This document shows, one piece after another, positions 2-32,132 of a stretch of DNA of 64,000 nt. The stretch's first letter is position 1. Every line of letters begins with the position of its first letter. Position numbers and translations under genes: made by a program. The notes below the pieces were generated by a model. That model had not been told where the DNA came from. It did no database searches and worked only from the letters and a program-made list of their open reading frames with translations. The stretch is from a virus. The stretch covers positions 31,356-95,355 of IMG/VR virus record IMGVR_UViG_3300049893_000899; one strand, written 5' to 3'.

Positions 2-301
2 GGAGATCTTAGAGTTGTTTTACAGCAATTATGCTTCTCTTGTGGTTTATCTCCAGAAGTTTTAAATATGATTGACCTTGAGGTTAGTAGATCTAATCAG
101 TCAAAGTTGTTTAAGGATTCAGATGAAGTTCTTGAAGGAAAATTAACTTACGAGAAAGAAGGGGTAGGTTGCTTTGTTGAACAGACTTCTGACAATTCTT
201 TTGTGTTAAAGAGAAATTCAGACAACAAAGTTTTAAAGAATAAAGCTAGTTTCTTTAAGCCTAGCTTTGATTTTTTAAGAACAATTATTAATTTTAAGTA
301 A
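2..301 (+). CDS. Hypothetical protein, 5'-truncated by window edge
   Basis: The frame of ORF 68..301 is open back to position 2 (GDLRVVLQQLCFSCGLSPEVLNM...). Confidence 0.6.
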   Translation, partial: GDLRVVLQQLCFSCGLSPEVLNMIDLEVSRSNQSKLFKDSDEVLEGKLTYEKEGVGCFVEQTSDNSFVLKRNSDNKVLKNKASFFKPSFDFLRTIINFK

Positions 302-320
302 TTATTTAAACAAGATAGAT

Positions 321-491
321 ATGACATCACAAGAATTATTTGCAGAAATCAATGTTCTTTTTGAACAGCTTCAAAATGAAACAACTAAAAAGAGTAAAGC
401 ATCAAAACTTAGAGCAAGAACTAAGTCAGTACAACTAAGCAAGATGCTTAAAGAATTTAGAGCTTTATCTCGCAAAGAAAGTAAACAATAA
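321..491 (+). CDS. Histone H1-like (Hc1-family) small basic DNA-binding protein, 56 aa; missed by the ORF track
   Basis: Translated by hand: MTSQELFAEINVLFEQLQNETTKKSKASKLRARTKSVQLSKMLKEFRALSRKESKQ. The KA..RAR..S..L.K.LKEFR..S pattern resembles Bacteroidota Hc1 proteins. A terminator follows. Confidence 0.75.
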   Translation: MTSQELFAEINVLFEQLQNETTKKSKASKLRARTKSVQLSKMLKEFRALSRKESKQ

Positions 492-497
492 AAAAAC

Positions 498-528
498 AAA
501 AAGGTTATCGAGAGGTAGCCTTTTTTTT
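498..528 (+). terminator. Rho-independent terminator
   Basis: AGGTTATC-GAGA-GGTAGCCT stem (two G-U pairs, GNRA loop) followed by a T run. Confidence 0.75.
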
Positions 529-539
529 ACTTATCAACT

Positions 540-1202
540 ATGAAACCAACAGAAAAATTATTAGGCTATTATTGGGCTGAAGAGCTCAACGATGTTTTAT
601 TGTCTGAAGAAATGAAGACAACATCAAGATATATCTCTGGAAGAAGAAACTTTGCAAGTGTACTTCCGGAACAACAAGAAGTATTCTCTTTATTCAAAAG
701 ACTTCAGCTAAAGAACATTAGAATTGTATTTATATCTGAAGCTCCAACAAGCACAAAGTCAGCAGCTTCAGGCATAGGATATGCTTCTTTAGATCCGTTT
801 GAAACATATCCTGAAAACAAAGCTTTAATCAATCATATTGAAAAGAACTTCAAAGATGGCATGTGGTTAACTCCAGATAGAGATTTAAAGGATTTAGTTG
901 CTAATGGAATATTCTTCTTAAACCAAGACTTAACTTGCGAAGAAGATAACAGAACGGCTCATAAAGGACTATGGGAATCCTTTACTTCATCTGTTTTGAA
1001 GCTTATTGCTAAAGAAGAAAGACCTATATGCTTTATCCTTTGGGGCCAATCAAATATAGAGTTCTTTGACAAAAATACTAAAGGGTTAGATTTGTCTATT
1101 CACAAAGTGTTTAAGAAAGAAGATATCAAAGAAGAGTCCACTTGCTTAAAAGAAGCTTGCGATTTTGTTGAGAGTTATTACAAACAAAAATTAATAGTAT
1201 AA
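540..1202 (+). CDS. Uracil-DNA glycosylase (family 1 UNG)-like protein with degenerate catalytic motifs
   Basis: IRIVFISEAP~VKVVILGQDP; GIFFLNQDLT~GVLLLNTVLT; AHKGLWESFT~SH..GWE.FT; FILWG~FLLWG. GQDPY and HPSP motifs are absent. Confidence 0.75.
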   Translation: MKPTEKLLGYYWAEELNDVLLSEEMKTTSRYISGRRNFASVLPEQQEVFSLFKRLQLKNIRIVFISEAPTSTKSAASGIGYASLDPFETYPENKALINHIEKNFKDGMWLTPDRDLKDLVANGIFFLNQDLTCEEDNRTAHKGLWESFTSSVLKLIAKEERPICFILWGQSNIEFFDKNTKGLDLSIHKVFKKEDIKEESTCLKEACDFVESYYKQKLIV

Positions 1203-1778
1203 ATGAGTAAGGAAAAGACTAAATTAGCAATGATACATCCATTTGATAGTAGTAAATCAATGACTGTACTTCATCTACTCCAATCTGAAATATGGTTGAA
1301 GCACATGATAGATCAGATTGAATATCAAACAAAAAAGTTTGGATGGAAGCAGAACAAAGAGTTCATGAACAAGACCAAGAACGCTTTGCAATCTATTAGG
1401 TTTTATAATCATTCAATCAGAGTTGACTACAATGATGATGAAATGTATGAGGTTACAGCAAAAGTGTCAGATCAAATCTGCAAAGTAGTAAACCTTTCAT
1501 CAGAAGACAGAGCTAAAGTTTATGAACTCATTGAAGAGCTTACAGGAACGCAAAGTAAGTTCACTACAGACCACACAGAACTAATCAAAGAGTATCTTGG
1601 AAAACTAGACGAAGCAAGAGTTAAGTATTCAAAGATAATAAAACAAGAATGCGTTGGAGCTGTTGTACTTGGAGGTGAGTTCCCTACTGTTGAAGATGCT
1701 ATCAATGCACATAACATATTAGCTAGGCTAAATGTTACATATCAGTATCCAGTTAATTTGATTAGTGAAATTAAATAA
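1203..1778 (+). CDS. Hypothetical protein
   Basis: 191-aa ORF abutting the upstream stop codon. Confidence 0.7.
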   Translation: MSKEKTKLAMIHPFDSSKSMTVLHLLQSEIWLKHMIDQIEYQTKKFGWKQNKEFMNKTKNALQSIRFYNHSIRVDYNDDEMYEVTAKVSDQICKVVNLSSEDRAKVYELIEELTGTQSKFTTDHTELIKEYLGKLDEARVKYSKIIKQECVGAVVLGGEFPTVEDAINAHNILARLNVTYQYPVNLISEIK

Positions 1779-1788
1779 GGCGGAAATT

Positions 1789-1995
1789 ATGAATTACCAA
1801 CAGCAATTAAATTCAATACACAGTTATCTTATGTATAAGAAATTCCCTTATCATAGTTTATCTGTGATACACAGACACCAAGATTTAGGTTTTCACGTTT
1901 TCTTTTCGGATGATGTAAAGGAAATGGTAACTGATGAAATTAAAGAGCATTTAGCTGCTTATGCGTTTCATTGGTCTTTCGTTAAAAGCAATTAA
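1789..1995 (+). CDS. Hypothetical protein
   Basis: ATG at 1789 preferred over the GTG at 1765, which overlaps the upstream gene. Confidence 0.6.
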   Translation: MNYQQQLNSIHSYLMYKKFPYHSLSVIHRHQDLGFHVFFSDDVKEMVTDEIKEHLAAYAFHWSFVKSN

Positions 1996-2013
1996 TATTT
2001 AAAACTATGGCAA

Positions 2014-2134
2014 GACTAACGGTTTGCAGATTGGCGTTGTTGCCACACAAATGTTTAATTGAAACACTAAATTTAATAATATGGAAAATGATAATTTGAA
2101 AACGGAAAGCAATAACGCCAATGTGCTGTTAGCT
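2014..2134. mobile_element. attC-like recombination site 1
   Basis: TAAC(2017)-GGTTT-GCAGATTGGCGTTGTTGC(2026-2043)...GCAATAACGCCAATGTGC(2109-2126)-T-GTTA(2128); arms 16/18 complementary. Confidence 0.7.
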
Positions 2135-2299
2135 GCTGTGCCTGATTGTAAAGATATGGATTACGATAAGGTAAGGGCTATCGGCAAGGAAAAGTATTGT
2201 ATAAAAGGAATAAGCTGTAATTTCTGCGACTTCATGGATAGAGATAGAGGTAAAATAAATAGTTGCGTTCAGGAGTATGTCAAAAGGCATTGCATCTAA
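2081..2299 (+). CDS. Cassette-borne hypothetical Cys-rich protein
   Basis: ATG lies in the loop of site 1; stop codon lies in the TAAC of site 2. Confidence 0.65.
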   Translation: MENDNLKTESNNANVLLAAVPDCKDMDYDKVRAIGKEKYCIKGISCNFCDFMDRDRGKINSCVQEYVKRHCI

Positions 2300-2424
2300 C
2301 GTTTTGCAGCTAACCGAAGTTGGCGATTACGAAGCACAAAAATTCAAATTAAATAAATGTTAAACCGAAGCACAACAGCTCATTTCAGCACTACACCGCC
2401 AATCTTGGTTAGGTGCTGTTATAT
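2294..2424. mobile_element. attC-like recombination site 2
   Basis: TAAC(2297)-GTTTT-GCAGCTAACCGAAGTTGGCG(2306-2325)...CGCCAATCTTGGTTAGGTGC(2397-2416)-T-GTTA(2418); arms 16/20 complementary. Confidence 0.7.
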
Positions 2425-2450
2425 GCTGTGCTTCTCAAATCTTAATTAAA

Positions 2451-2651
2451 ATGACAAAAGGAACTTTTCAAAAAACAGTAGAAAGTGCAGAATACGATTT
2501 TGTTCGTGATAAAGCACAAAGAGAAACGATTGAATTACTTGCTAAGACTTTGATTGAAGTTAGAAAGCACATGACCGCACACATTCCTGAAAAGGTATTT
2601 GATATGGTTGATGATGCACTTTCTAAGTCGGGTTTTCAGCATAGCATATAA
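2451..2651 (+). CDS. Cassette-borne hypothetical protein
   Basis: 66-aa ORF ending in TAAC; bounded by a 14/15-bp inverted repeat (2418-2432 / 2638-2652). Confidence 0.65.
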   Translation: MTKGTFQKTVESAEYDFVRDKAQRETIELLAKTLIEVRKHMTAHIPEKVFDMVDDALSKSGFQHSI

Positions 2652-2670
2652 CTACAATATATACGCAGTT
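2649..2670. repeat. Array-terminal (attI-like) module, copy 1
   Basis: TAACTACAATATATACGCAGTT; 21/22 identical to 5999-6020. Confidence 0.65.
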
Positions 2671-2692
2671 AAACAAATAAACAATTAAGAAA

Positions 2693-3139
2693 ATGAAAGA
2701 AAAAATAAAAGGCTTTTCCGACCCTAGGCTGGTCGGTAGAGAGGTGTATGTTAGGGATGTGAAGATGGTTATTAGTAAAATAAATGATAGCCACACAATG
2801 TGTATAAAAAAAGAGTACGGTATTAATCGTTCATTTCTTCATGATGGAAGGCATACTTCGATTGATTTACTACCTATTTTATCCTTCACACCATACACCG
2901 TAGAAATAAATGAAAACGGTCAAGTAACAATCAAAGGCTACTCGGATGAAATTGAATTAGAATCAGAGGACAAGCCGAAAGAGGGTGATTGTGGTTGGTT
3001 TTGGGATTCTGAATATTGTCGTTATTTTAGGTATGGTACGATTGCAAGAATAAGCTCTGCTTACTATATTGGTACTGCTCCTTACAAAAACTTCTCAAAA
3101 ACATGCCCTGAGTGGATTAAAGAAATTGTAAATAAGTAA
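2693..3139 (+). CDS. Hypothetical protein
   Basis: 148-aa ORF with A-rich leader. Confidence 0.7.
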   Translation: MKEKIKGFSDPRLVGREVYVRDVKMVISKINDSHTMCIKKEYGINRSFLHDGRHTSIDLLPILSFTPYTVEINENGQVTIKGYSDEIELESEDKPKEGDCGWFWDSEYCRYFRYGTIARISSAYYIGTAPYKNFSKTCPEWIKEIVNK

Positions 3140-3142
3140 AAT

Positions 3143-3415
3143 ATGGAAAAAATAAGCGTAAAAGATAATAAAGTTATTTTAACCGTAACGCCACAAGAAA
3201 CTAATAAGTTCTTAGAAAAGGGTACTATTATTTCATGGAATGAAAGTATTAATTTCCTCGAAAACTATAAATCTGATGAAATAGTAGATGTTGTTGATAG
3301 TAATAGTAAAATTGACTTAGAAGCATCTAAAATGCTAAAAAGAATATCTGAGCTAAATATAGAAAAAGAATTGTTAATTAATAAACTATTAGAAACATGC
3401 AAGGAAGAAAAATAA
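3143..3415 (+). CDS. Hypothetical protein
   Basis: 90-aa ORF in a tightly packed run. Confidence 0.6.
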   Translation: MEKISVKDNKVILTVTPQETNKFLEKGTIISWNESINFLENYKSDEIVDVVDSNSKIDLEASKMLKRISELNIEKELLINKLLETCKEEK

Positions 3416-3861
3416 AACACAAAGAAACTGGAGAGGTTTTTATATTCTTACAGTTTGAGGCTTCATCTAAGACTTTAGACGACAACAAACAAGTAGTATC
3501 ATTAGCTGTTATAGTAGAAGATAAAAACGGAAATATTTGTATTTTCTCAGCTAATGATGTGCAATTCGTAAAAGAAGAGCCTATCAAAACAGAAACAACA
3601 GGAATAGACATGATGAAGCATAAAGCGGAATCAATGCCGACCTTACAAAATAGCATTGAAGTGTGGGCGTGTATGGATAGAAGTGGATTTGTTAATATTG
3701 CAGCAAAAAAGAATTTCTATAAAAATAATGAAATTTGGAGCTCTCACGATGAGTTGTTTATGTCAACTAACATAGAAGACTTCATACAAGCATTCCAAGG
3801 CTTATCTTGGAACGATGAAGGACCTAAGAAGTTTAGAATTAGTGTAGAGCCTTTGGGGTAA
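3397..3861 (+). CDS. Hypothetical protein
   Basis: 154-aa ORF overlapping the upstream gene end. Confidence 0.65.
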   Translation: MQGRKIKHKETGEVFIFLQFEASSKTLDDNKQVVSLAVIVEDKNGNICIFSANDVQFVKEEPIKTETTGIDMMKHKAESMPTLQNSIEVWACMDRSGFVNIAAKKNFYKNNEIWSSHDELFMSTNIEDFIQAFQGLSWNDEGPKKFRISVEPLG

Positions 3862-3898
3862 CGAATAAAAGCCGTTTTATTATGGAAAAAACATCATT

Positions 3899-4093
3899 AT
3901 GTTGTTAAAATTATTAAAGAGATTATTCAAATCTAAAACAAAATCAAAAAAAGATTCTAAAACAAAATCAAAAGAAGATGTTTTTATTCTTAGAAAATAT
4001 TGTAGTGGTTGTGATTCTATTCAAGTGCATCACGATAGCCCTTTTGAAGAGCCATTTTGTTATAGATGTTATAATAGACAACATGGGTATTAA
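3899..4093 (+). CDS. Small basic protein with CxxC...CxxC (possible Zn ribbon)
   Basis: CSGC and CYRC motifs; internal 24-bp tandem duplication at 3932-3979. Confidence 0.55.
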   Translation: MLLKLLKRLFKSKTKSKKDSKTKSKEDVFILRKYCSGCDSIQVHHDSPFEEPFCYRCYNRQHGY

Positions 4094-4126
4094 AAAATAA
4101 AAGCCGTTTTACTTAGTAGGACGGTA

Positions 4127-4351
4127 ATGTTAAATTTAAAAGATAAGATTATGGACAACCTAAAATTGACGACACCATTTGTTCCACAGGAACAAAACAC
4201 TATCTTTATTATGCAAGATAATGGCACAAGAGAAATTCTAAAGCTTTGTGGAAACGGAGATATTTTCGTAAAAGGCAGATTAGCAGAAAATGACAAAGAA
4301 GTAGTTGATGCTTTAAGAGAGTTTCTCAAAGGGCAAGGCTTATTAAAATAG
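4127..4351 (+). CDS. Hypothetical protein
   Basis: 74-aa ORF between repeat copies. Confidence 0.65.
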   Translation: MLNLKDKIMDNLKLTTPFVPQEQNTIFIMQDNGTREILKLCGNGDIFVKGRLAENDKEVVDALREFLKGQGLLK

Positions 4352-4408
4352 CCGATAACAAATAAAAGCCGTTTTACTCGGTTTGTAGTAACTTTAAAAT
4401 GAAATAAA

Positions 4409-4684
4409 ATGAGCAACACAACATTAAATTTAAACAGCGTGGGTACAACTACAAGCGTCAGTCTTTGGTCAACACCTGAAAGAGTAGATGTAATTGAAAA
4501 CTCTGATAGTATCGAGTTCGTGTATAAAGAAACTTCAATGATTTCCTACACATCAATTCCAGCACCACCACCACAAGTAAGAGTTTTCAAAATCGTCTTT
4601 TCTTGTGTAGATGGCAAGTGGAATAAATCGGAAAGAATTTATGGTCAAATTGTTCCTGCTGAAAATGAACGATACGTTTTTTAG
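4409..4684 (+). CDS. Hypothetical protein
   Basis: 91-aa ORF between repeat copies, followed by a divergent attI-like module at 4694-4714. Confidence 0.7.
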   Translation: MSNTTLNLNSVGTTTSVSLWSTPERVDVIENSDSIEFVYKETSMISYTSIPAPPPQVRVFKIVFSCVDGKWNKSERIYGQIVPAENERYVF

Positions 4685-4751
4685 CATTGCCTATAACTAT
4701 CAGATATGTGCAACAAACAAATAAAAGCCGTCTTACTAAACGATTAAGAAA

Positions 4752-5243
4752 ATGGAAAAAGTATTAGAAAAATTCACTATTGATGATGTGGAGGTTGGTG
4801 ATGTTTTTCTTCATAAACACAATAAATCAAGATTTACTGTTTCAGAAAAACATAAAGATAAAGGTTATATTCTTTTAAAAAGTTATGGAGCACTTTGGGC
4901 TTTAAGTTTTTACTATTTCGATCTAATTAAAAAAAGTAATAAAACTGAAACACAAACAGAGGAACAATTAATAGAACAACAGCCAACCTCAATAAAATCC
5001 GTCTTATCAGGTATTGACAAGCTTCTAGAATACAAAGAAAGTAAGTATGGCAATGCACTAAACAACGATCGTTTAAAAGTGTTTTCTGGTAAATGCAAAT
5101 TTGGAGATATACTTGACGCAAAACTAAACAGAGTAGCCAACGGAGAAGAGCTACTAAAGAACGATGTTGTAGATATAGCAGGCTATCTAATCCTAACACT
5201 AAGAGAAAAAGGATGGGATGATTTTAGTGAGTTTATGGACTGA
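4752..5243 (+). CDS. Protein with C-terminal DUF1599/Nmad1-like (all-alpha nucleotide pyrophosphatase-like) domain
   Basis: LLEYKESKYGNA...DAKLNRV...DVVDIAGYLIL pattern. Confidence 0.6.
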   Translation: MEKVLEKFTIDDVEVGDVFLHKHNKSRFTVSEKHKDKGYILLKSYGALWALSFYYFDLIKKSNKTETQTEEQLIEQQPTSIKSVLSGIDKLLEYKESKYGNALNNDRLKVFSGKCKFGDILDAKLNRVANGEELLKNDVVDIAGYLILTLREKGWDDFSEFMD

Positions 5244-5639
5244 AAATAAGGCTTAAATTTATGAGATATGACTGAAAAAGAATTGTTAATTGAGTTGTGT
5301 AATAATCTTGAAAAAGAACTCAATCAAAGAGATGGAAAGAAAACGCATAAAGTACAATTACAAAGCGGATTAAAGCCTGAAAACTATTTCGTTCCAATGA
5401 TGAGCATAGGAATAACAAGAAAATCGTATAATGGTGTTAGTATGGCTTGGTTTGTTGAAGTGTGGGTTGATGGAAAATGTATATTCAGAGAATCACATGT
5501 GCCACACAAAACAGAAAAGCTTGAAATAGTTGAAGGATTTTTGATTAAAAGGGTTTTCAGACACATCTTCACATTTGGAGTTATGTCAAGTAAAAAAACC
5601 ATTGATGAACTTGTGTGAATTATGGACTGAAAATAAGGC
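5233..5639 (+). repeat. Perfect 20-bp direct repeat TTATGGACTGAAAATAAGGC flanking ORF 5268..5618
   Basis: Copies at 5233-5252 and 5620-5639. Confidence 0.9.
5268..5618 (+). CDS. Hypothetical protein (apparently inserted gene)
   Basis: 116-aa ORF between 20-bp direct repeats. Confidence 0.7.
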   Translation: MTEKELLIELCNNLEKELNQRDGKKTHKVQLQSGLKPENYFVPMMSIGITRKSYNGVSMAWFVEVWVDGKCIFRESHVPHKTEKLEIVEGFLIKRVFRHIFTFGVMSSKKTIDELV

Positions 5640-5641
5640 GG

Positions 5642-5774
5642 CAATAACGGTTTGAAGCTATGCTTAGTTGCGGACTTAAATAACAAAATTTTTAATTAAC
5701 AACAAAATATAATAAAATGGAAAAAGTATCAGATTACAACGGAACTCCGCAATTAGGCATAGCTGCAGTTAGCA
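5642..5774. mobile_element. attC-like recombination site 3
   Basis: TAAC(5645)-GGTTT-GAAGCTATGCTTAGTTGCGGA(5654-5674)...TCCGCAATTAGGCATAGCTGC(5746-5766)-A-GTTA(5768); arms 18/21 complementary. Confidence 0.7.
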
Positions 5775-6001
5775 GCCGTTTTAATTTCGGACAAGAGGTG
5801 TGGTTCTTAAATGGACGACACATTATGAATGGTAAGATAGAAGCTGTTAGAGGGCAGAAACATTGCCTATACGAACACACCGACATTGAATTGGAAGTTT
5901 ACCATACAAGCGGTGAAATAGGGTGTAAGTTTTGGGTAAAAGATGAAGATTGTTTTGAAAGCAGACAAGCGTTGATAGATGCGGTCTTAAATGGCTGCTA
6001 A
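5717..6001 (+). CDS. Cassette-borne hypothetical protein (possible SH3-like beta barrel)
   Basis: ATG in the loop of site 3; FNFGQEVWFL...GKIEAV; ends in GGCTGCTAAC, complementary to GTTAGCAGCC at 5768. Confidence 0.7.
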   Translation: MEKVSDYNGTPQLGIAAVSSRFNFGQEVWFLNGRHIMNGKIEAVRGQKHCLYEHTDIELEVYHTSGEIGCKFWVKDEDCFESRQALIDAVLNGC

Positions 6002-6020
6002 CTATAATATATACGCAGTT
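5999..6020. repeat. Array-terminal (attI-like) module, copy 2
   Basis: TAACTATAATATATACGCAGTT. Confidence 0.65.
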
Positions 6021-6070
6021 CAAACTAAATAAGGCGGCAATAACTGCCGTCTTACTAAAAATAAATTATC

Positions 6071-6457
6071 ATGAGCGAATTTAGAATAGATTACTTTGAA
6101 CTTATGTTCTTAGCAGAATCAGTATCACCAAAAGGACCTATTGCACGGTCAATGTGCTTTGATAGCTTCTCTGATAAGCACTACCACCACATGAATGAGG
6201 GACAACGATTGCAGTTCTTTAATTACGTGCAAAAGCAACCTTACTTTACACTAGAAGACGAGCAATGCAGGCACTTTTACGCAAGATTTAATCCACAGAA
6301 TCAATACAAAGTTTCTTGCTTCTACGATGGAAAGGCACAAACAGTAGATTGCTATAGATTTGAAGACGAGTATAGGGTATCTAGGAATAGATTTATAAAT
6401 AGTGACTACATTAAAAGTATCGTTAGGGTTTACGATGGAGTGGTTATCAAGCAATAA
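6071..6457 (+). CDS. Hypothetical protein
   Basis: 128-aa ORF between repeat copies; its stop codon lies inside the repeat. Confidence 0.7.
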   Translation: MSEFRIDYFELMFLAESVSPKGPIARSMCFDSFSDKHYHHMNEGQRLQFFNYVQKQPYFTLEDEQCRHFYARFNPQNQYKVSCFYDGKAQTVDCYRFEDEYRVSRNRFINSDYIKSIVRVYDGVVIKQ

Positions 6458-6497
6458 GGCGGCAATAATTGATGTCTTACTTAAATAATATTAATCT

Positions 6498-6986
6498 ATG
6501 GCAAATATTTGTGATGTATACGTTGAGTTCTACAACGTGAAAGATGAACAAAAACATCTTATTACTGAAGAAAACTTCAAGAATGAAGAAATCAAAACAA
6601 ACAACGACGGTTGGGTTGATATAGAGTTTGTTAATGAAGGACTAAACACGTTATCTATGTCCTCAGCGTGGTCAGCTCCTATTTCTTGGTTTGAAGGTTT
6701 TTGCGCTGAACATGGCTTAGATGGAAGAATGTATTTCTATGAGCCTGGATGTTGTTATCATGGATATGCTGACGTTACAGATGGCCACATTCAAACAACA
6801 TACTATGATAATAATTTTGAATATCTTTACCTACATAATAACGAAGGCTTCTGGGATGAAGTAAATTATTTCTTAGAAGAAGATATGCTAGAAGAAGAAG
6901 AATGGAATGAAAGAGTTCTTAAGTATATTTCTCTTGAAGATAAGAAAACATTAATTGAAATGATTGAAAAACAAAAAAAGGGATAA
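6498..6986 (+). CDS. YubB/DUF1281-like ferredoxin-fold protein
   Basis: SAWSAP..WF...YFYEPGC.Y.G motif. Confidence 0.55.
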   Translation: MANICDVYVEFYNVKDEQKHLITEENFKNEEIKTNNDGWVDIEFVNEGLNTLSMSSAWSAPISWFEGFCAEHGLDGRMYFYEPGCCYHGYADVTDGHIQTTYYDNNFEYLYLHNNEGFWDEVNYFLEEDMLEEEEWNERVLKYISLEDKKTLIEMIEKQKKG

Positions 6987-7008
6987 CTTCGGTTATCCCT
7001 TTTTTTTT
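6973..7008. terminator. Bidirectional Rho-independent terminator at the convergence of the accessory and virion modules
   Basis: A7-GGGATAAC-TTCG-GTTATCCC-T9. Confidence 0.9.
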
Positions 7009-29900: not shown

Positions 29901-32132
29901 CAACATAGCATCAATAGGAGATATTACATAGAAAGTATTCTTTAATACAGTCTCAGTTCTTGTAGCTACAGCGTTATAAAGTAAATCTTTTCCGTGATGT
30001 TGTGAACCGGCTTTATTGTAACAATTGTTTACATAAGCTGTAATTAAAGTAAACAATCTAACTGTTTCATCTGGAGTTTTCCCATATTCTTCAAAGAAGA
30101 AAGCTATTGCCTCTTTAGATAAGGAATCTTTCTTTCCTTGAGACAATAATTCATATATAGTATTTACAAGAGAGTTTTGAGCAAGCTTTAACCCAGCTCC
30201 ATCAACAAGAGATCTAGCATACACACTGTTTAAATAAGCTAACTCAGAAGGAACTACAAACGTGTCCTTCTCTTCTATAGAGTCGGTATGAGTCCCTTCT
30301 CCGTATCTCAACAACCTCTCTAATATACCTTTAGCTTTAGGGTCAAGATTTATTGTCCTAATTAAACTCTGTCTAAACTTTTCCTTAGTAGCATCAGGTC
30401 TTGGATTCATTAATCCAGAATAAACTATATCTCTAAACAGCTTTTTTCTTAATCCAGTAAAAGCCATTGCAAGCTCATTGATTTTCTCTTCAATAGAAGA
30501 TAAAGACGTTTCAGAGAATATTCTACTTTGTACTATTGTTTGAGATTGACCACTTCCAACCTTAACATCTTCAGTAGAAGCATCATACATATTAGACTTC
30601 ACGTTAGCAAAAGCATTAAAGAAAGAAGCCTTAAACATTTCAAGATACTCTTTCTCAGCTTTAGTTGAACCTTCTTTTTCAAGAAGGCCAACTATCTGGT
30701 TTAGTTCCGGCTTGATCTTCGCGTATCTCTTCAATGTAGCAACCATATCAGCGTATCTAGTAACTATTGTATACTCGACCTCGCCATCAACCTCTCTTGA
30801 AGACACCTTATTAGATGTTGATTCAAGAATACTATTTAATGTCTTCCACATCACTTTAAATGAATGTGTTTTAGGAAGACCTGTTCTTTTATCTATAACT
30901 ATATTACCTTCAATGTCTCTTTCAAAGATACTTGATAAGAAAGACTTAACGCTTGCATCAACACTATTAATCTGGCTAACAGTATTTGAAGCTTCAAGGT
31001 TATGAACCTTATTATCATAGCTTTCTTCATCATCTCCCTCTTCTTCTGTGCTAACCTCGTCCTCTTTAGGGTCGTTGTTTTTGTCTTCAAATACTTCAAC
31101 CCCAACAGAAGAAGTGTTAGATGTGATATCTGGCTCTTTCTCCTCTTCTCTAAAGACAACACCTTTTTCTTTAAGGTTGGCTTTAAGTAATGTTTTAAAC
31201 TTATCTTCTTGCTGAAGTAGAGCTATTAAATTATCTTTATATTGGTCAGTATAGTTTTCTTTCACATAAGAAACCATCTTGTCAAAAAGAGAATTTCCTT
31301 CTTCATGCCCAGAGAATAAATCAAGGAAGTCTTCCTCTAATCCTTTCTTGTTACTTTTAGCTACTTCACTATTCAACCCAAATTCATCAATTAATATTGT
31401 TGAAGCAGAATCAACATAAGCACTCATTAAAGAGTCGGAAATAGGTCTTCTTATATAAGAAACGCCATTCTCGTTTGCTATTGTAAAGCTGTTTTTAATT
31501 GTTTCTTCAAACTTAATTAAATCCTTCTTATCCTTAAAGTTATCTTTAAACGATTTGAAAGCATTATAAAAAGTATCATTACCAAGTCCAGACTCTCCTG
31601 TCTTTGTCCACTGAATAAAGTCATTGTATATTCCTATTGCAGCATTTAACTCAGAATAGAATAGATTTCCTTTTGACAGCTTATCAAAGCTATCAATAAA
31701 ACCATTTCTATCGTAGCCTAAAAACACCTCAGCAAAGTATAAGATGTTGTTGTGATCAGAAACAATATCAAATTCAGTATTCTTTGATATAGCGTCAATT
31801 AGATTGTTGAAGTTTCCTTCATTAGTAATGTATAGATTTATTATCGGATCTACAACAGACAAATCTAAATTAGGAAACTCTTCTTTTATTTTTGAAGAAA
31901 CAATAGAGTTACCGCTTTTTTTAAGCTCTTCAATACTTTTGAATACGTTTACATCTTTCTCGTTTACTGTATTGAAAAAGAAATTGTTTACTATATCTTC
32001 AGCAAATGGAGCTAATGAATGTTTTTCTCCTTTAGCTTCAGCATCATGGAAAGATGTTGTAGCTATTGTTTCTCCTTTAGCTCTTGCTATAACGCTAAAA
32101 GTTCTCGACGTATTTATTGGGCAACTAGACAT
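20946..32132 (-). CDS. Giant virion-packaged RNA polymerase (crAss-like, double-psi beta-barrel type) fused to a zincin protease domain
   Basis: 3728 aa; GYRIPTQ..SS and GSDYDIDKMF (catalytic Asp motif, nt ~27420-27434), ADAQGF, FVDMAKDP; HELSH...E zincin at ~25296-25310. Confidence 0.9.
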   Translation of the reverse strand: MSSCPINTSRTFSVIARAKGETIATTSFHDAEAKGEKHSLAPFAEDIVNNFFFNTVNEKDVNVFKSIEELKKSGNSIVSSKIKEEFPNLDLSVVDPIINLYITNEGNFNNLIDAISKNTEFDIVSDHNNILYFAEVFLGYDRNGFIDSFDKLSKGNLFYSELNAAIGIYNDFIQWTKTGESGLGNDTFYNAFKSFKDNFKDKKDLIKFEETIKNSFTIANENGVSYIRRPISDSLMSAYVDSASTILIDEFGLNSEVAKSNKKGLEEDFLDLFSGHEEGNSLFDKMVSYVKENYTDQYKDNLIALLQQEDKFKTLLKANLKEKGVVFREEEKEPDITSNTSSVGVEVFEDKNNDPKEDEVSTEEEGDDEESYDNKVHNLEASNTVSQINSVDASVKSFLSSIFERDIEGNIVIDKRTGLPKTHSFKVMWKTLNSILESTSNKVSSREVDGEVEYTIVTRYADMVATLKRYAKIKPELNQIVGLLEKEGSTKAEKEYLEMFKASFFNAFANVKSNMYDASTEDVKVGSGQSQTIVQSRIFSETSLSSIEEKINELAMAFTGLRKKLFRDIVYSGLMNPRPDATKEKFRQSLIRTINLDPKAKGILERLLRYGEGTHTDSIEEKDTFVVPSELAYLNSVYARSLVDGAGLKLAQNSLVNTIYELLSQGKKDSLSKEAIAFFFEEYGKTPDETVRLFTLITAYVNNCYNKAGSQHHGKDLLYNAVATRTETVLKNTFYVISPIDAMLKISQIQDIISGSLHEENTIGAEGKNVYSINKEASSNRFISDVKNGANKRKPGGNILNLYGRISEDAFSSAYKGGMSFFQKVLSFSQIIKTRGEEKNKHTSENTITEDVSIYYKEQINALRSPVFNGKFDVNGNPTGSIIYPLRMLQPADAGIERFYSVSLTEYVDYRRKNPGSNIRAFASEFIKTEIIKFLEAEIEAYKAYEAAKNMPFTKFIGIKHYDKKYKNSSILDLDFSSQEEVNAIFDSKDGKHVFNKSNSAILDKVVNDIIDSAVKEMREEMFDFGSLASRNMSGMVAFEAVTLIDTALNMRQFNANAIHPGFFKSAVEIVKRYKALVSPSKESYIFNKPTFKIAVLNDIERDSGGLYSFLVKTAVESKLMSEAEAKALYNPYLKNNEADAQGFVTLDRYVDFRRSQGDWDESNNTLVEKLKDKNHVPTFYEKQQALNLFGPQKPFHYSISSRTTNINEDGTASLNHLLAVPTMLKYSMIPIIPAIHKGTELASLLENMEKNGIDEVLFDSAVKMGSQGAIDFSEAINGKDLFAIELENRYHGMQQVTPNKITEGKSLRSIGIQFKKLMKNVKSGLVYYTKNGVEYTGEKYLEETDAIEAAITERLTYEFMNNLGLDFDSGNIKDVKKFNEGIKRKLLKVDAIKNNKELVDFIKEKTSSEITPFNLDEVGPSSYQIISSVISSFQKGVVNPSMPGGSAVQVSPVGLNSMSEEEKSSIMFLDGRTSAKLMHPLPGKAGECLVPLSFFKNIPGLEKMSYEEITDLMKNNKDVFNKAIGYRIPTQKLSSIDSLDIVGILPPHLGDSIILYPSITGKTGSDYDIDKMFLIFKSIKVYKNKQGKFVIRNSNQSDGSSAGVISQMHDELFNHWYNMLNSSNTEAYLDKMAPVDASELKDDYTKDILELQGRDLDAINNKSFLDIMNPITQLRSKSDNMGGQDGIGATANQQNMAAVEIGYGYQNPILSMIASKFNVSQDQGNAKTEVLSYARERVKNTAVSIVDAISSFLNGFVDMAKDPFLSYVNINKTTSGMLFAMIRAGVHPMRAMLYLNHPVIFAYSKYGENGMIQYLTSKGIDFSGNDLAAFSKAAEYNFKMKKFKYVKVDVSADSLAKDIKDFNSGSMTTINMSYIISMLKMYHELNSLSSELSTQATELKFDKLSQRSSFELRNRLYKNNANMSKNYLSNNTYLGSLRNSFAKLSVLLNSISIVSNETVTTYISTILNDTSKENIANRKKFYSAIKSIGGLINVEKEMASYVYNKFFASKVFSDSNKNNRMIEDFVAVIEGNVNTDNKVIQVIKKNYEKNREKERTRRQVQNVYRLIAISKTGGEASKEARAAILASNNLEDLTPADKFKLALKFNRGEIHSDLSNEISESFDDAPMPIKIGVLLNYFMTGRTPVSGSSNVIPVTIKFLNRIGYSTALDLAGKMIEESPIFFADQFIDNIILKNQSGSVQDEYQDYYNKMSEFDKIDDEKRTARKIGLLEAKLGANQVIIDPNMKAWGSVTYVDGLPVVKLRSREYLSRDTVIHELSHVFIDISGGAYTSEAMAAYDQAMQTDIADRVSDRYPELKEGSELHRKEVLAVALGLKGTEIFENAEESIFGKIRNWVNKVYNIIKKKLGLDYDAIALMANEVLNSSIYNNMPTINIDEVMENRFNFKSDGPMREAKERYEGSDNAGNFEYNYKKEALDIATNTLIASIRDDENVDLEGFMDGLNKMLSEAVSAASKSGIDTSSGSQNINKMVETIDQIRSEIGKASDFYVLRQLVEMAMDVYNDSIVITDLISSITRDPLRQILDDVDIDGTNPGKMTLEQFYAQHANQQERWDELTQIKKAISILGVFNLISKQISPKLEFASKGSTEDVEIANLSVHVGDIFASLKRFKNIQASLDGGIPDTALQSKIDSELATIKEEYRKIVGIVKRLSGDNSTTKNIEDTLTLPDNPSYAELSDLINKTIGLDAGVIDFEGTKTNVETSEENMTSLENIINRLLAKRYHKQTLNDLSEALRSIERKISEANSSLEKSSKKVLAFTLAFEDRGHINVRMMQARDLFRKIKGGIGSFKDKAVRDNLINIGVQAFQKNKEKWLYERYNTIYKRLSEDERDISSLVLAFCDKKMINDSIITPFVAYLEKAKDNVRIKYQEEFRGKDNLASMYRDYVNKNGWNKTLGVNYEEVNEKFFYVQRVNDEDRLCLVSEYDWMRLEAERQRYIAIGMENYKKALEEYDLKAKQINDRFESGEYDKAQYREYMDLNEQQKKTIKSTYYVGKQIDIFKKENYEKDAKKTDGKGRLIPLPKYKSAKWAALTTEEKKIADGFEILLHKSNGYLEKGDMLINNELPFVGKTSHELYAEGKLKEGFKEGINESIKNQQSKDLDYVNDAEERASNEEAIVRRSTFNGEPIQRPPVKFRDKGIKIEDRSKDILSILMMNYHSAINFEEMSKAAFMGETLKALLREQNINIKEGGKKVITKYFNKAFNTKGNSQRLKAAESVFDEYVLGKRREDMQFGKGYSISKILGTITSISAKAKLNGNIEGGLVNATAGTVSSMIAFKANNLLDSNLIGEASTEYFKNIVDSMKNYSADDAMRTDKLTAITVFFNSRLNFNEAFVQDIMNDKTVRAFFGAAGHMPFAVGEHMISTVLTIAKLKGIRCIAENGEYLKADGTTTPEISEAVSLYDSIIFDEKSRRISISPKVFATTSNFTSRIMRNDKGEIDERSYNNMVSEIGLNISDLISNTQGYYGNRGLSEMDKKVAGPALMSLRKFLPRKMMMTFAGWQYALKDFDTLYNPETGEYDEDLINGNAFGDEAIMGMVTAEIIQIMEGYRKTEGSTAEKVLGGVKAAVGKNDDKVSEIIAYNASRLRWTGIFAGSFYGLYLLSSLVAPGGDDEEGGFIENIRFLSPYIALRVFNELTYFANPGELLRSFNNVSQSFGFISDLAKLAGDLFTGDIDKLPKDLGRIVSHDNYVRLFMDGHLKNKINGLENGNY

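Follow-up and report, generated by a model that had tools for sequence, protein, structure and literature searches.

Integrons are the textbook system of one-at-a-time gene capture. Their canonical attC sites possess a roughly 5/5 central spacer and two or three extrahelical bases, and the attC sites of the VCR type pose a puzzle of their own, as they are uniform across unrelated cassettes. In the accessible portion of the searchable literature, integrons are bacterial and, recently, archaeal, depend on the integrase IntI and are nearly absent from Bacteroidota, and the survey with IntegronFinder 2.0 recorded almost no integrons in Bacteroidetes (PMC9024848). Herein, a stretch of 64,000 nt of viral DNA (termed the window; positions 31,356 to 95,355 of IMG/VR record IMGVR_UViG_3300049893_000899) is described, in which three long hairpins beside small genes are probably attC-like folded-DNA recombination sites of an integron-like system in Bacteroidota and their phages, a reading that was drawn from sequence comparison and is given a probability of about three in four. 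The scans covered the whole record of 95,355 bp, which belongs to a phage of the Crassvirales whose major head protein is 42-43% identical to that of cr109_1, cr6_1 and relatives, and the other loci compared are designated by L-numbers.

Judged by the available part of its description, rAID-1 of gut Bacteroidales is the closest published bacterial counterpart, in which a 5' XerD-like recombinase gene heads a series of short, co-directional genes low in G+C, and the repetitive intergenic sequences of which were called reminiscent of integrons by its authors (Ross et al. 2019, bioRxiv 10.1101/471110). Its definition, as given there, comprises a recombinase at least 44% identical to BF9343_RS08045 and at least two co-directional genes with a G+C content of at most 41% and repetitive intergenic sequences. 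Compared by description, the bacterial arrays L241-L243 discussed below share the gene orientation, the G+C content of at most 41% and the intergenic repeats, whereas the phage locus itself does not qualify, being devoid of a recombinase; no hairpin, docking site, phage-borne array or range beyond Bacteroidales appears in that part of the rAID-1 description. A looser analogue is provided by the PeSL cassettes of T4-type phages, whose promoter-terminator direct repeats are used by homologous recombination (PMC2839356, PMC4122927). Small accessory phage genes flanked by conserved stem-loop motifs and shuffled as modules are common to both, whereas the phage sites described here have 4-nt core boundaries, inverted cassette-specific ends and, in bacteria, a linked recombinase. 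The CTX phage integrates its whole single-stranded DNA (ssDNA) genome at dif as a folded hairpin in an Xer-dependent manner, and the present case would be alike in that the phage carries a long folded single-stranded hairpin as the substrate of a host Xer-type recombinase, but with single-gene cassettes in a double-stranded DNA phage instead of integration at dif. A search of the open-access literature yielded no report connecting attC-type sites with crAss-like phages.

The three sites (Table 1) are located in a block of the window (300-7000) that consists of a series of small plus-strand genes, and they share one plan, namely TAAC, 5 nt, an arm of 18-21 bp, a loop of about 65 nt rich in A and T, the complementary arm, a single nucleotide and GTTA. 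Both the sites and their architecture had been proposed from the letters alone in an earlier account (hereafter the sequence-only reading), the coordinates and plan of which were reproduced on recheck. The arms are complementary at 16/18, 16/20 and 18/21 positions in sites 1, 2 and 3, respectively, and the mismatches are mostly G.T on the plus strand. Only these three sites were detected in the 95-kb genome (arms 16/19 and 19/22), with shuffled genomes giving far weaker matches, and no short-loop variant of the site was found in it. The covariance model R1, built in this analysis, assigned 94 bits to site 1 on the plus strand versus 25.6 on the minus strand, 100.4 bits to site 2, and 100 bits to site 3 on the plus strand versus 22.5 on the minus strand. 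The folding of both strands, which the sequence-only reading had suggested as a check, thus favoured the plus strand by R1 at sites 1 and 3 and by DNA folding parameters at all three. Site 1 shares 97% identity with a site in L024, the gene bodies of both being unrelated, and site 2 shows 87% identity with L036.

Table 1. Sites, cassettes, cargo genes and docking modules of the phage locus (window coordinates)
Feature	Position	Strand	Description
attC-like site 1	2017-2131	+	115 nt; core TAAC; bulge 5/1; arms of 18 bp; gene 1 starts in the loop
attC-like site 2	2297-2421	+	125 nt; 5' TAAC doubles as the end of cassette 1
attC-like site 3	5645-5771	+	127 nt; 21-bp arms; start codon of gene 3 in the loop
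Cassette 1	2021-2300	+	Hairpin, 12-nt flank 2132-2143, gene 1, complementary flank 2285-2296, TAAC 2297-2300; ends 13/16
Gene 1	2081-2299	+	72 aa, Cys-rich, no family; starts in the loop, runs through right arm and GTTA, stop TAA inside the TAAC core
Cassette 2	2301-2652	+	Hairpin, flank 2422-2433, gene 2, flank 2637-2648, TAAC 2649-2652; ends 14/15
Gene 2	2451-2651	+	66 aa, no family; own start 3' of the hairpin; stop within the TAAC core
Cassette 3	5649-6002	+	Hairpin, flank 5772-5783, gene 3, flank 5987-5998, TAAC 5999-6002; ends 14/16
Gene 3	5717-6001	+	94 aa; leader from loop and right arm; conserved body begins right after GTTA
Docking module 1	2649-2674	+	attI-like; closes the two-cassette mini-array; 22-nt module 2649-2670
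Docking module 2	5999-6024	+	attI-like; closes the one-cassette mini-array; 22-nt module 5999-6020
Diverged third module copy	4694-4719	+	Repeat family D4; 3' of gene 4409-4684

These hairpins are members of a widespread family. A pattern scan of viral sequences with the two conserved ends, in which a length of 103-133 nt was allowed, yielded at least 120 viral contigs, with a length peak at 125-127 nt and about 90 of the matches folding as real elements. Alignment A1 comprises 85 distinct elements in 134 columns, of which 91% of the cells form standard pairs; two-sided changes were seen in 17 of the 25 base pairs, which bears out the earlier claim that structure is conserved over sequence, and the covariation score amounts to 0.551 versus 0.125 for shuffled columns and at most 0.13 with the partners slid. 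The TAAC and GTTA cores are invariant in 85/85 elements, the four core pairs never changing, while arm position 4 is a conserved non-pair accompanied by a 5/1 asymmetric bulge and arm position 14 is G.T in 80/85 elements. Because G.T outnumbers A.C in the arms by 184 to 48, the folding strand is assigned to the plus strand of the window. Apart from the arms, a 5' block of 13 nt and a 3' block of 9 nt are conserved, and since open reading frames (ORFs) traverse the GTTA 3' block in all three frames, its conservation does not stem from coding and a protein-level cause is ruled out. A promoter reading of the 5' block was likewise set aside as unlikely, owing to its poor fit to the spacing of the Bacteroides -7 motif. 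Rfam 15 yielded no match at gathering thresholds, and permissive settings gave sub-threshold matches to generic hairpins (miRNA precursors) only. Natural variants of the element were also encountered: at 862-975 of L024 (reverse strand) TAAT replaces TAAC at the 5' core, and L103 (2100-2148) and L087 (the partner of L105 961) harbor short-loop sites of about 50 nt with the same cores and bulge, which lack the translation-start loop, the genes behind them having a start of their own.

The sequence-only reading had further proposed that site and gene travel together as cassettes, and this is supported by exact TAAC boundaries between relatives as well as by the ends of the units themselves. The end complementarities of the three window cassettes were identical on recomputation (13/16, 14/15 and 14/16). 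The accompanying claim that the leftmost TAACs match nothing beyond the core is valid in register (5/16 and 7/16), but it strictly holds for site 1 only, as the left and right flanks of site 3 pair over 9 bp at a one-base shift. A flank test, in which the 12 nt after GTTA were compared with the 12 nt before a TAAC situated 150-1000 nt downstream, was carried out on 75 elements from other loci; 77% of them have a downstream TAAC with a complementary 12-nt flank (at least 9/12), versus 2.8% for mismatched flank/locus pairs. Across 54 distinct cassettes, flank positions 1-11 pair by varied Watson-Crick types, with position 7 being G.T in 54/54; together with the G.T at arm position 14, this wobble indicates the folding strand. 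Viral cassettes are 278-1140 nt in length (median 360 nt), and the ORF ends on the TAA of the terminal core in about 27 of 60. When the ends of the window cassettes are joined, as in the predicted circle, they fold 7-8.5 kcal/mol better than the integrated hybrid site, the gain for cassette 1 being 7 kcal/mol.

An aligned pair of contigs provides the precise presence or absence of a unit that the sequence-only reading had recommended looking for: a 469-nt unit composed of hairpin and gene is present in L112 and missing in L093, is inserted at TAAC, and is bordered by sequences 99.8-100% identical on both sides. Moreover, the gene-3 cassette of the window is found in three contexts in three phages (the window, L246 with 87% and L247 with 73% amino acid identity), where the homology is bounded by two cores and the arms of the L247 copy carry compensatory changes. 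In the sample compared, no DNA match between phage and bacterium extended past the hairpin.

The same sites are arranged as arrays in bacteria. In species-representative genomes, at least 120 loci carry the pattern, nearly all of them in Bacteroidota, with carriers including Pedobacter, Flavobacterium, Chitinophaga, Hymenobacter, Kaistella and metagenome-assembled genomes (MAGs) of Bacteroidales, and 64 of 151 evenly sampled Bacteroidota genomes (42%) have at least one R1 match at E <= 1e-5. A single genome may hold several arrays of 5-10 or more sites each. The layout consists of a tyrosine recombinase gene related to Xer and IntI, an attI-like site, and co-directional genes that are each followed by one site of about 126 nt. 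The recombinase is about 350 aa long (homologues from Pedobacter glucosidilyticus and Flavobacterium are encoded at L241 1546-2991 and L242 1438-2499), the array lies directly 3' of its gene, and the same arrangement recurs in 17/18 bacterial loci with a homologue; furthermore, all 16 genomes with a recombinase homologue at least 57% identical carry the element, compared with 42% overall. A search for IntI-like recombinases in Bacteroidota had been advocated in the sequence-only reading, and the linked enzyme that emerged is of another kind. It scores at the cut-off of the NCBIfam model 'tyrosine recombinase/integron integrase', falls below the cut-off of the integron-integrase model TIGR02249 with a match in two pieces, and has its closest solved relatives among XerA/XerC-like proteins; because 22 residues are found where VchIntIA (2a3v) has 64, the IntI-specific insertion is missing. 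The integron-like cassette reading is supported but corrected: since the linked recombinase is Xer-like and without the IntI insertion, the system is integron-like and of the Xer type, not a classical IntI integron. The cargo of the bacterial arrays includes a protein with PLD-like and helicase-associated domains (L241 7259-8944) and a MORN-repeat protein (L242 5467-6228), which is consistent with defence or immunity genes, as in rAID-1.

Each of the two mini-arrays of the phage is closed by a terminal module that resembles an attI-like docking site. The stretch between the recombinase stop and the first cassette in bacteria follows the same plan as the phage module, that is, TAAC, T, an AT-rich segment with TATA, and CGC. 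The 22-nt module is present in two copies only in the phage genome, and exact copies of the 22-mer occur in three other viral records (about 0.02 expected by chance), two of which share the same surrounding sequence. In these records it sits after an ordinary gene with no hairpin nearby, on which grounds the copies are interpreted as unoccupied sites. The two copies with common surroundings belong to L253, a 60-kb record labelled as a giant-virus MAG (GVMAG), and L255, a viral contig of 133 kb. On the bacterial side, L241 (2992-3082), L242 (2500-2604), L243 and L172 contain two copies of a short inverted repeat between the recombinase stop and the docking TAAC, which may represent enzyme binding sites or a terminator. 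The description of the cassettes as 'captured by a phage' therefore appears to be an understatement, because the phage possesses its own attI-like modules together with a distinct cassette pool of reversed polarity.

From these comparisons a mechanism can be proposed. A phage cassette extends from the base after one TAAC to the next TAAC and contains, in order, the hairpin, GTTA, a specific flank of 11-12 nt, the gene body, the complementary flank and TAAC. Strand exchange would be performed by an Xer-type recombinase at the 5' TAAC of the folded strand, which is the sense strand of the phage and the bottom strand relative to the bacterial cassette genes. The excised circle would restore a hairpin of about 150 nt with an outer stem of 15-16 bp, and in the phage the two docking modules would have taken in two cassettes (module 1) and one cassette (module 2). 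The AT-rich loop supplies a start codon and a short disordered leader, with the stop often being the TAA of the core. In this scheme the folding of ssDNA in vivo, the position of cleavage within the core, the identity of the acting enzyme and the continued mobility of the cassettes in this phage are all presumptive. The scheme can be widened to a Xer-type integron-like system that is shared by Bacteroidota and their phages and missed by standard finders, in which a reverse-polarity phage pool docks at phage attI-like modules, is moved by the recombinase of the host or of the phage itself, and links phages to one another, and possibly to hosts, by site-specific gene exchange; the odds of this wider proposal are judged to be about even.

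The comparison with classical integrons, including those with VCR-type attC sites of about 123-126 nt, reveals numerous likenesses. The sites are imperfect palindromes with AAC/GTT cores in which structure prevails over sequence; one folding strand is favoured and is, in bacteria, opposite to the cassette genes, as in the bottom-strand rule; cassette ends are complementary, each array site being a hybrid of two cassettes; a docking site lies beside a tyrosine recombinase gene in the bacterial arrays; and the sites are uniform across unrelated genes. The phage arrangement, with sites but no integrase, corresponds to a CALIN, a cluster of attC sites without integrase. On the other hand, the array recombinase lacks the IntI-specific insertion and is co-directional with its array, the outer stem measures 15-16 bp and has an invariant G.T, the spacer bulge is asymmetric (5/1), several arrays may reside in one genome, and the phage cassettes have reversed gene polarity. 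An inner helix with a conserved non-pair at position 4 is present together with the 5/1 bulge, in a geometry other than that of the canonical spacer and extrahelical bases.

Some of these differences weigh against the recombination-site reading, along with other observations. The site is unlike canonical attC in its 5/1 asymmetric bulge and in an outer stem of 15-16 bp versus 7 bp, and the linked recombinase is without the insertion typical of IntI. All the support, that for recombination, circles and enzyme activity included, is comparative, and a recombinase is absent from the phage. As the folded strand of the phage coincides with the mRNA strand, a role at the RNA level is possible there. 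Hairpins that are at least 88% identical are common to loci with unrelated flanking genes (522 hairpin-only matches), and the gene bodies attached to such near-identical hairpins are unrelated beyond a break at GTTA, for which a single crossover at the 5' core alone is insufficient. VCR-type attC sites present the same puzzle. Finally, R1 finds no element in cr109_1, cr6_1, crAss001, phi14:2 or FpV4, and the system is accordingly not a general feature of crAss-like phages.

The most substantial alternative, which is nevertheless regarded as unlikely, is that the sites genuinely belong to the family yet are inactive relics in this phage, a piece of an array having been acquired once and the hairpins now serving only as gene starts. 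Such an explanation would agree with there being three sites only, with the decayed third module at 4694-4719, and with the enzyme inventory: no PF00589 match and no tblastn match to the array enzyme was obtained in the 95-kb phage genome, by which the absence of an integrase, initially claimed for the window, is extended to the entire genome. Nor was a close relative found that could reveal recent turnover, as a blastn comparison of the whole region with 50,697 phage records was negative and a search for relatives of the phage by way of a neighbouring 191-aa protein found none. Decay is difficult to reconcile, however, with scores of 94-100 bits that are on a par with the best of the family, with invariant features and end complementarities that are all intact, and with a gene-3 cassette that has changed phage contexts. 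With no recombinase of the phage's own, the enzyme would have to come from the host and act in trans, and such provision by the host, which is the presumed route, is plausible because about 42% of the sampled Bacteroidota carry the element. Four other viral loci (L065, L094, L103 and L114) encode homologues of the array recombinase that are 40-50% identical to it, located on the attI side of the array, downstream of the sense cassettes and co-directional with the phage genes; the homologue in L103 is a shorter form of 277 aa without the N-terminal extension.

Gene polarity bears on a second alternative, in which the hairpins would be mainly mRNA structures for start-codon presentation or RNA processing and the cassette pattern a by-product. 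In viral contigs, the frame is open after GTTA in the sense direction only in 67 elements and in the antisense direction only in 5, and the start codons lie at loop offsets of 57-72, being placed in the open loop in most viral elements; owing to this reversed polarity, the loop start and the core stop, the phage cassette genes are read in the direction of phage transcription. The G.U wobbles also favour the sense strand, and the RNA folds of the window hairpins are stable as well. In bacterial contigs, by contrast, 27 elements are open in the sense and 46 in the antisense direction, and the cassette genes are encoded on the non-folding strand, in the same direction as the recombinase gene, so that the reversed gene polarity inferred for the phage from sequence alone is confirmed against bacterial arrays using the same sites. 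Because the folded strand is antisense to the bacterial cassette genes, the conserved function is not to be sought in mRNA, and an mRNA structure would account neither for presence/absence boundaries exactly at the core nor for arrays linked to a recombinase. This explanation is given a very low probability.

Shuffling by ordinary homologous recombination between intergenic motifs, in the manner of PeSLs and without a site-specific enzyme, is hardly more credible. PeSLs are documented (PMC2839356), the conserved 13-nt 5' and 9-nt 3' blocks could act as microhomologies, and other direct repeats in the gene block flank single genes. The distribution of breakpoints nonetheless speaks against it: among 46 internal homology breakpoints located at most 400 nt from an element, a 25-nt window at the 5' core receives 20, the 3' core 2 and the interior of the hairpin 4, which is a preference of ten to one over an equally conserved 3' core. 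Examples are L046/L062 and L205/L221, in which both cassette ends are delimited, as well as L244/L242, L061/L098 and L177/L210. Homology reaching more than 100 nt past the hairpin always runs from the 5' core downstream in the element sense (6 versus 0 upstream), and junctions with an attI-like partner have only the 4-nt core in common. Cassette-specific complementary ends with an invariant G.T and arrays linked to a recombinase would not be expected from homologous recombination either. [quoted passage not shown]

Provided that the attC-like reading is correct, integron logic has been combined with a different branch of tyrosine recombinases in about four of ten sampled Bacteroidota genomes and in many phages, a crAss-like phage included, and this phage would take part in a barely described integron-like exchange of genes. 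The use of opposite strands by bacterial and phage cassettes suggests two pools served by one machinery. Should the cassettes prove active, accessory genes of phages, among which counter-defence functions usually reside, would be exchanged by a precise enzymatic route and not by chance recombination, and the open questions of integron biology, such as the origin of cassettes and the uniformity of sites across unrelated genes, would gain a new setting. R1 recognises the sites with high specificity, which makes surveys feasible, as well as bench experiments in tractable strains of Flavobacterium or Pedobacter.

Regarding the cargo, the cassette proteins received no Pfam, PHROG or Atlas assignment, the single Pfam match (EBA-175_VI) being under the cut-off, and tblastn found no homologues of the small window proteins in the fetched loci; the gene-3 homologues in L246 and L247 came from a separate search for related loci. 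Gene 1 and the ORF that follows the nearly identical hairpin of L024 have only the hairpin-encoded first residues in common. The hairpin of cassette 2 encloses an ORF of 30 codons (2357-2449) in a frame that differs from that of gene 2. Gene 3 is predicted by AlphaFold2 (AF2, pLDDT 82) to form a small beta-barrel plus a helix with a disordered leader, and a fold search returned weak SH3/Tudor-like rows only (E >= 0.06); in alignment A2 of its homologues, the protein body is kept from just after GTTA while the leaders differ.

Several further repeats surround these cassettes. The gene at 4409-4684 is bracketed by a relic of the hairpin 5' block (4378-4392) and by the diverged terminal module, and may be a decayed cassette, R1 giving no score to either the module copy at 4694-4719 or the relic. 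Several small genes that are unrelated to one another each have an 18-nt direct repeat in front of them (at 3864, 4096, 4361 and 4720, and in a weaker form at 4991; window 3864-4737), and a similar motif is situated 3' of the attI-like module at 6045-6058 and 4725-4737 and also in L253 and L254; this motif possibly belongs to the docking region or acts as a regulatory signal of the phage. A second repeat family is represented at 5633-5648, 6029-6058 and 6454-6482; at 6030-6054 it forms a 9-bp hairpin whose loop ends in TAAC, and its left half at 5633-5648 ends at the TAAC where cassette 3 begins, which gives the impression that this cassette was inserted into a site of this kind. Lastly, a single gene (5268-5618) is flanked by a perfect 20-bp direct repeat (5233-5252 and 5620-5639, verified), which looks like gene gain independent of the hairpin cassettes.

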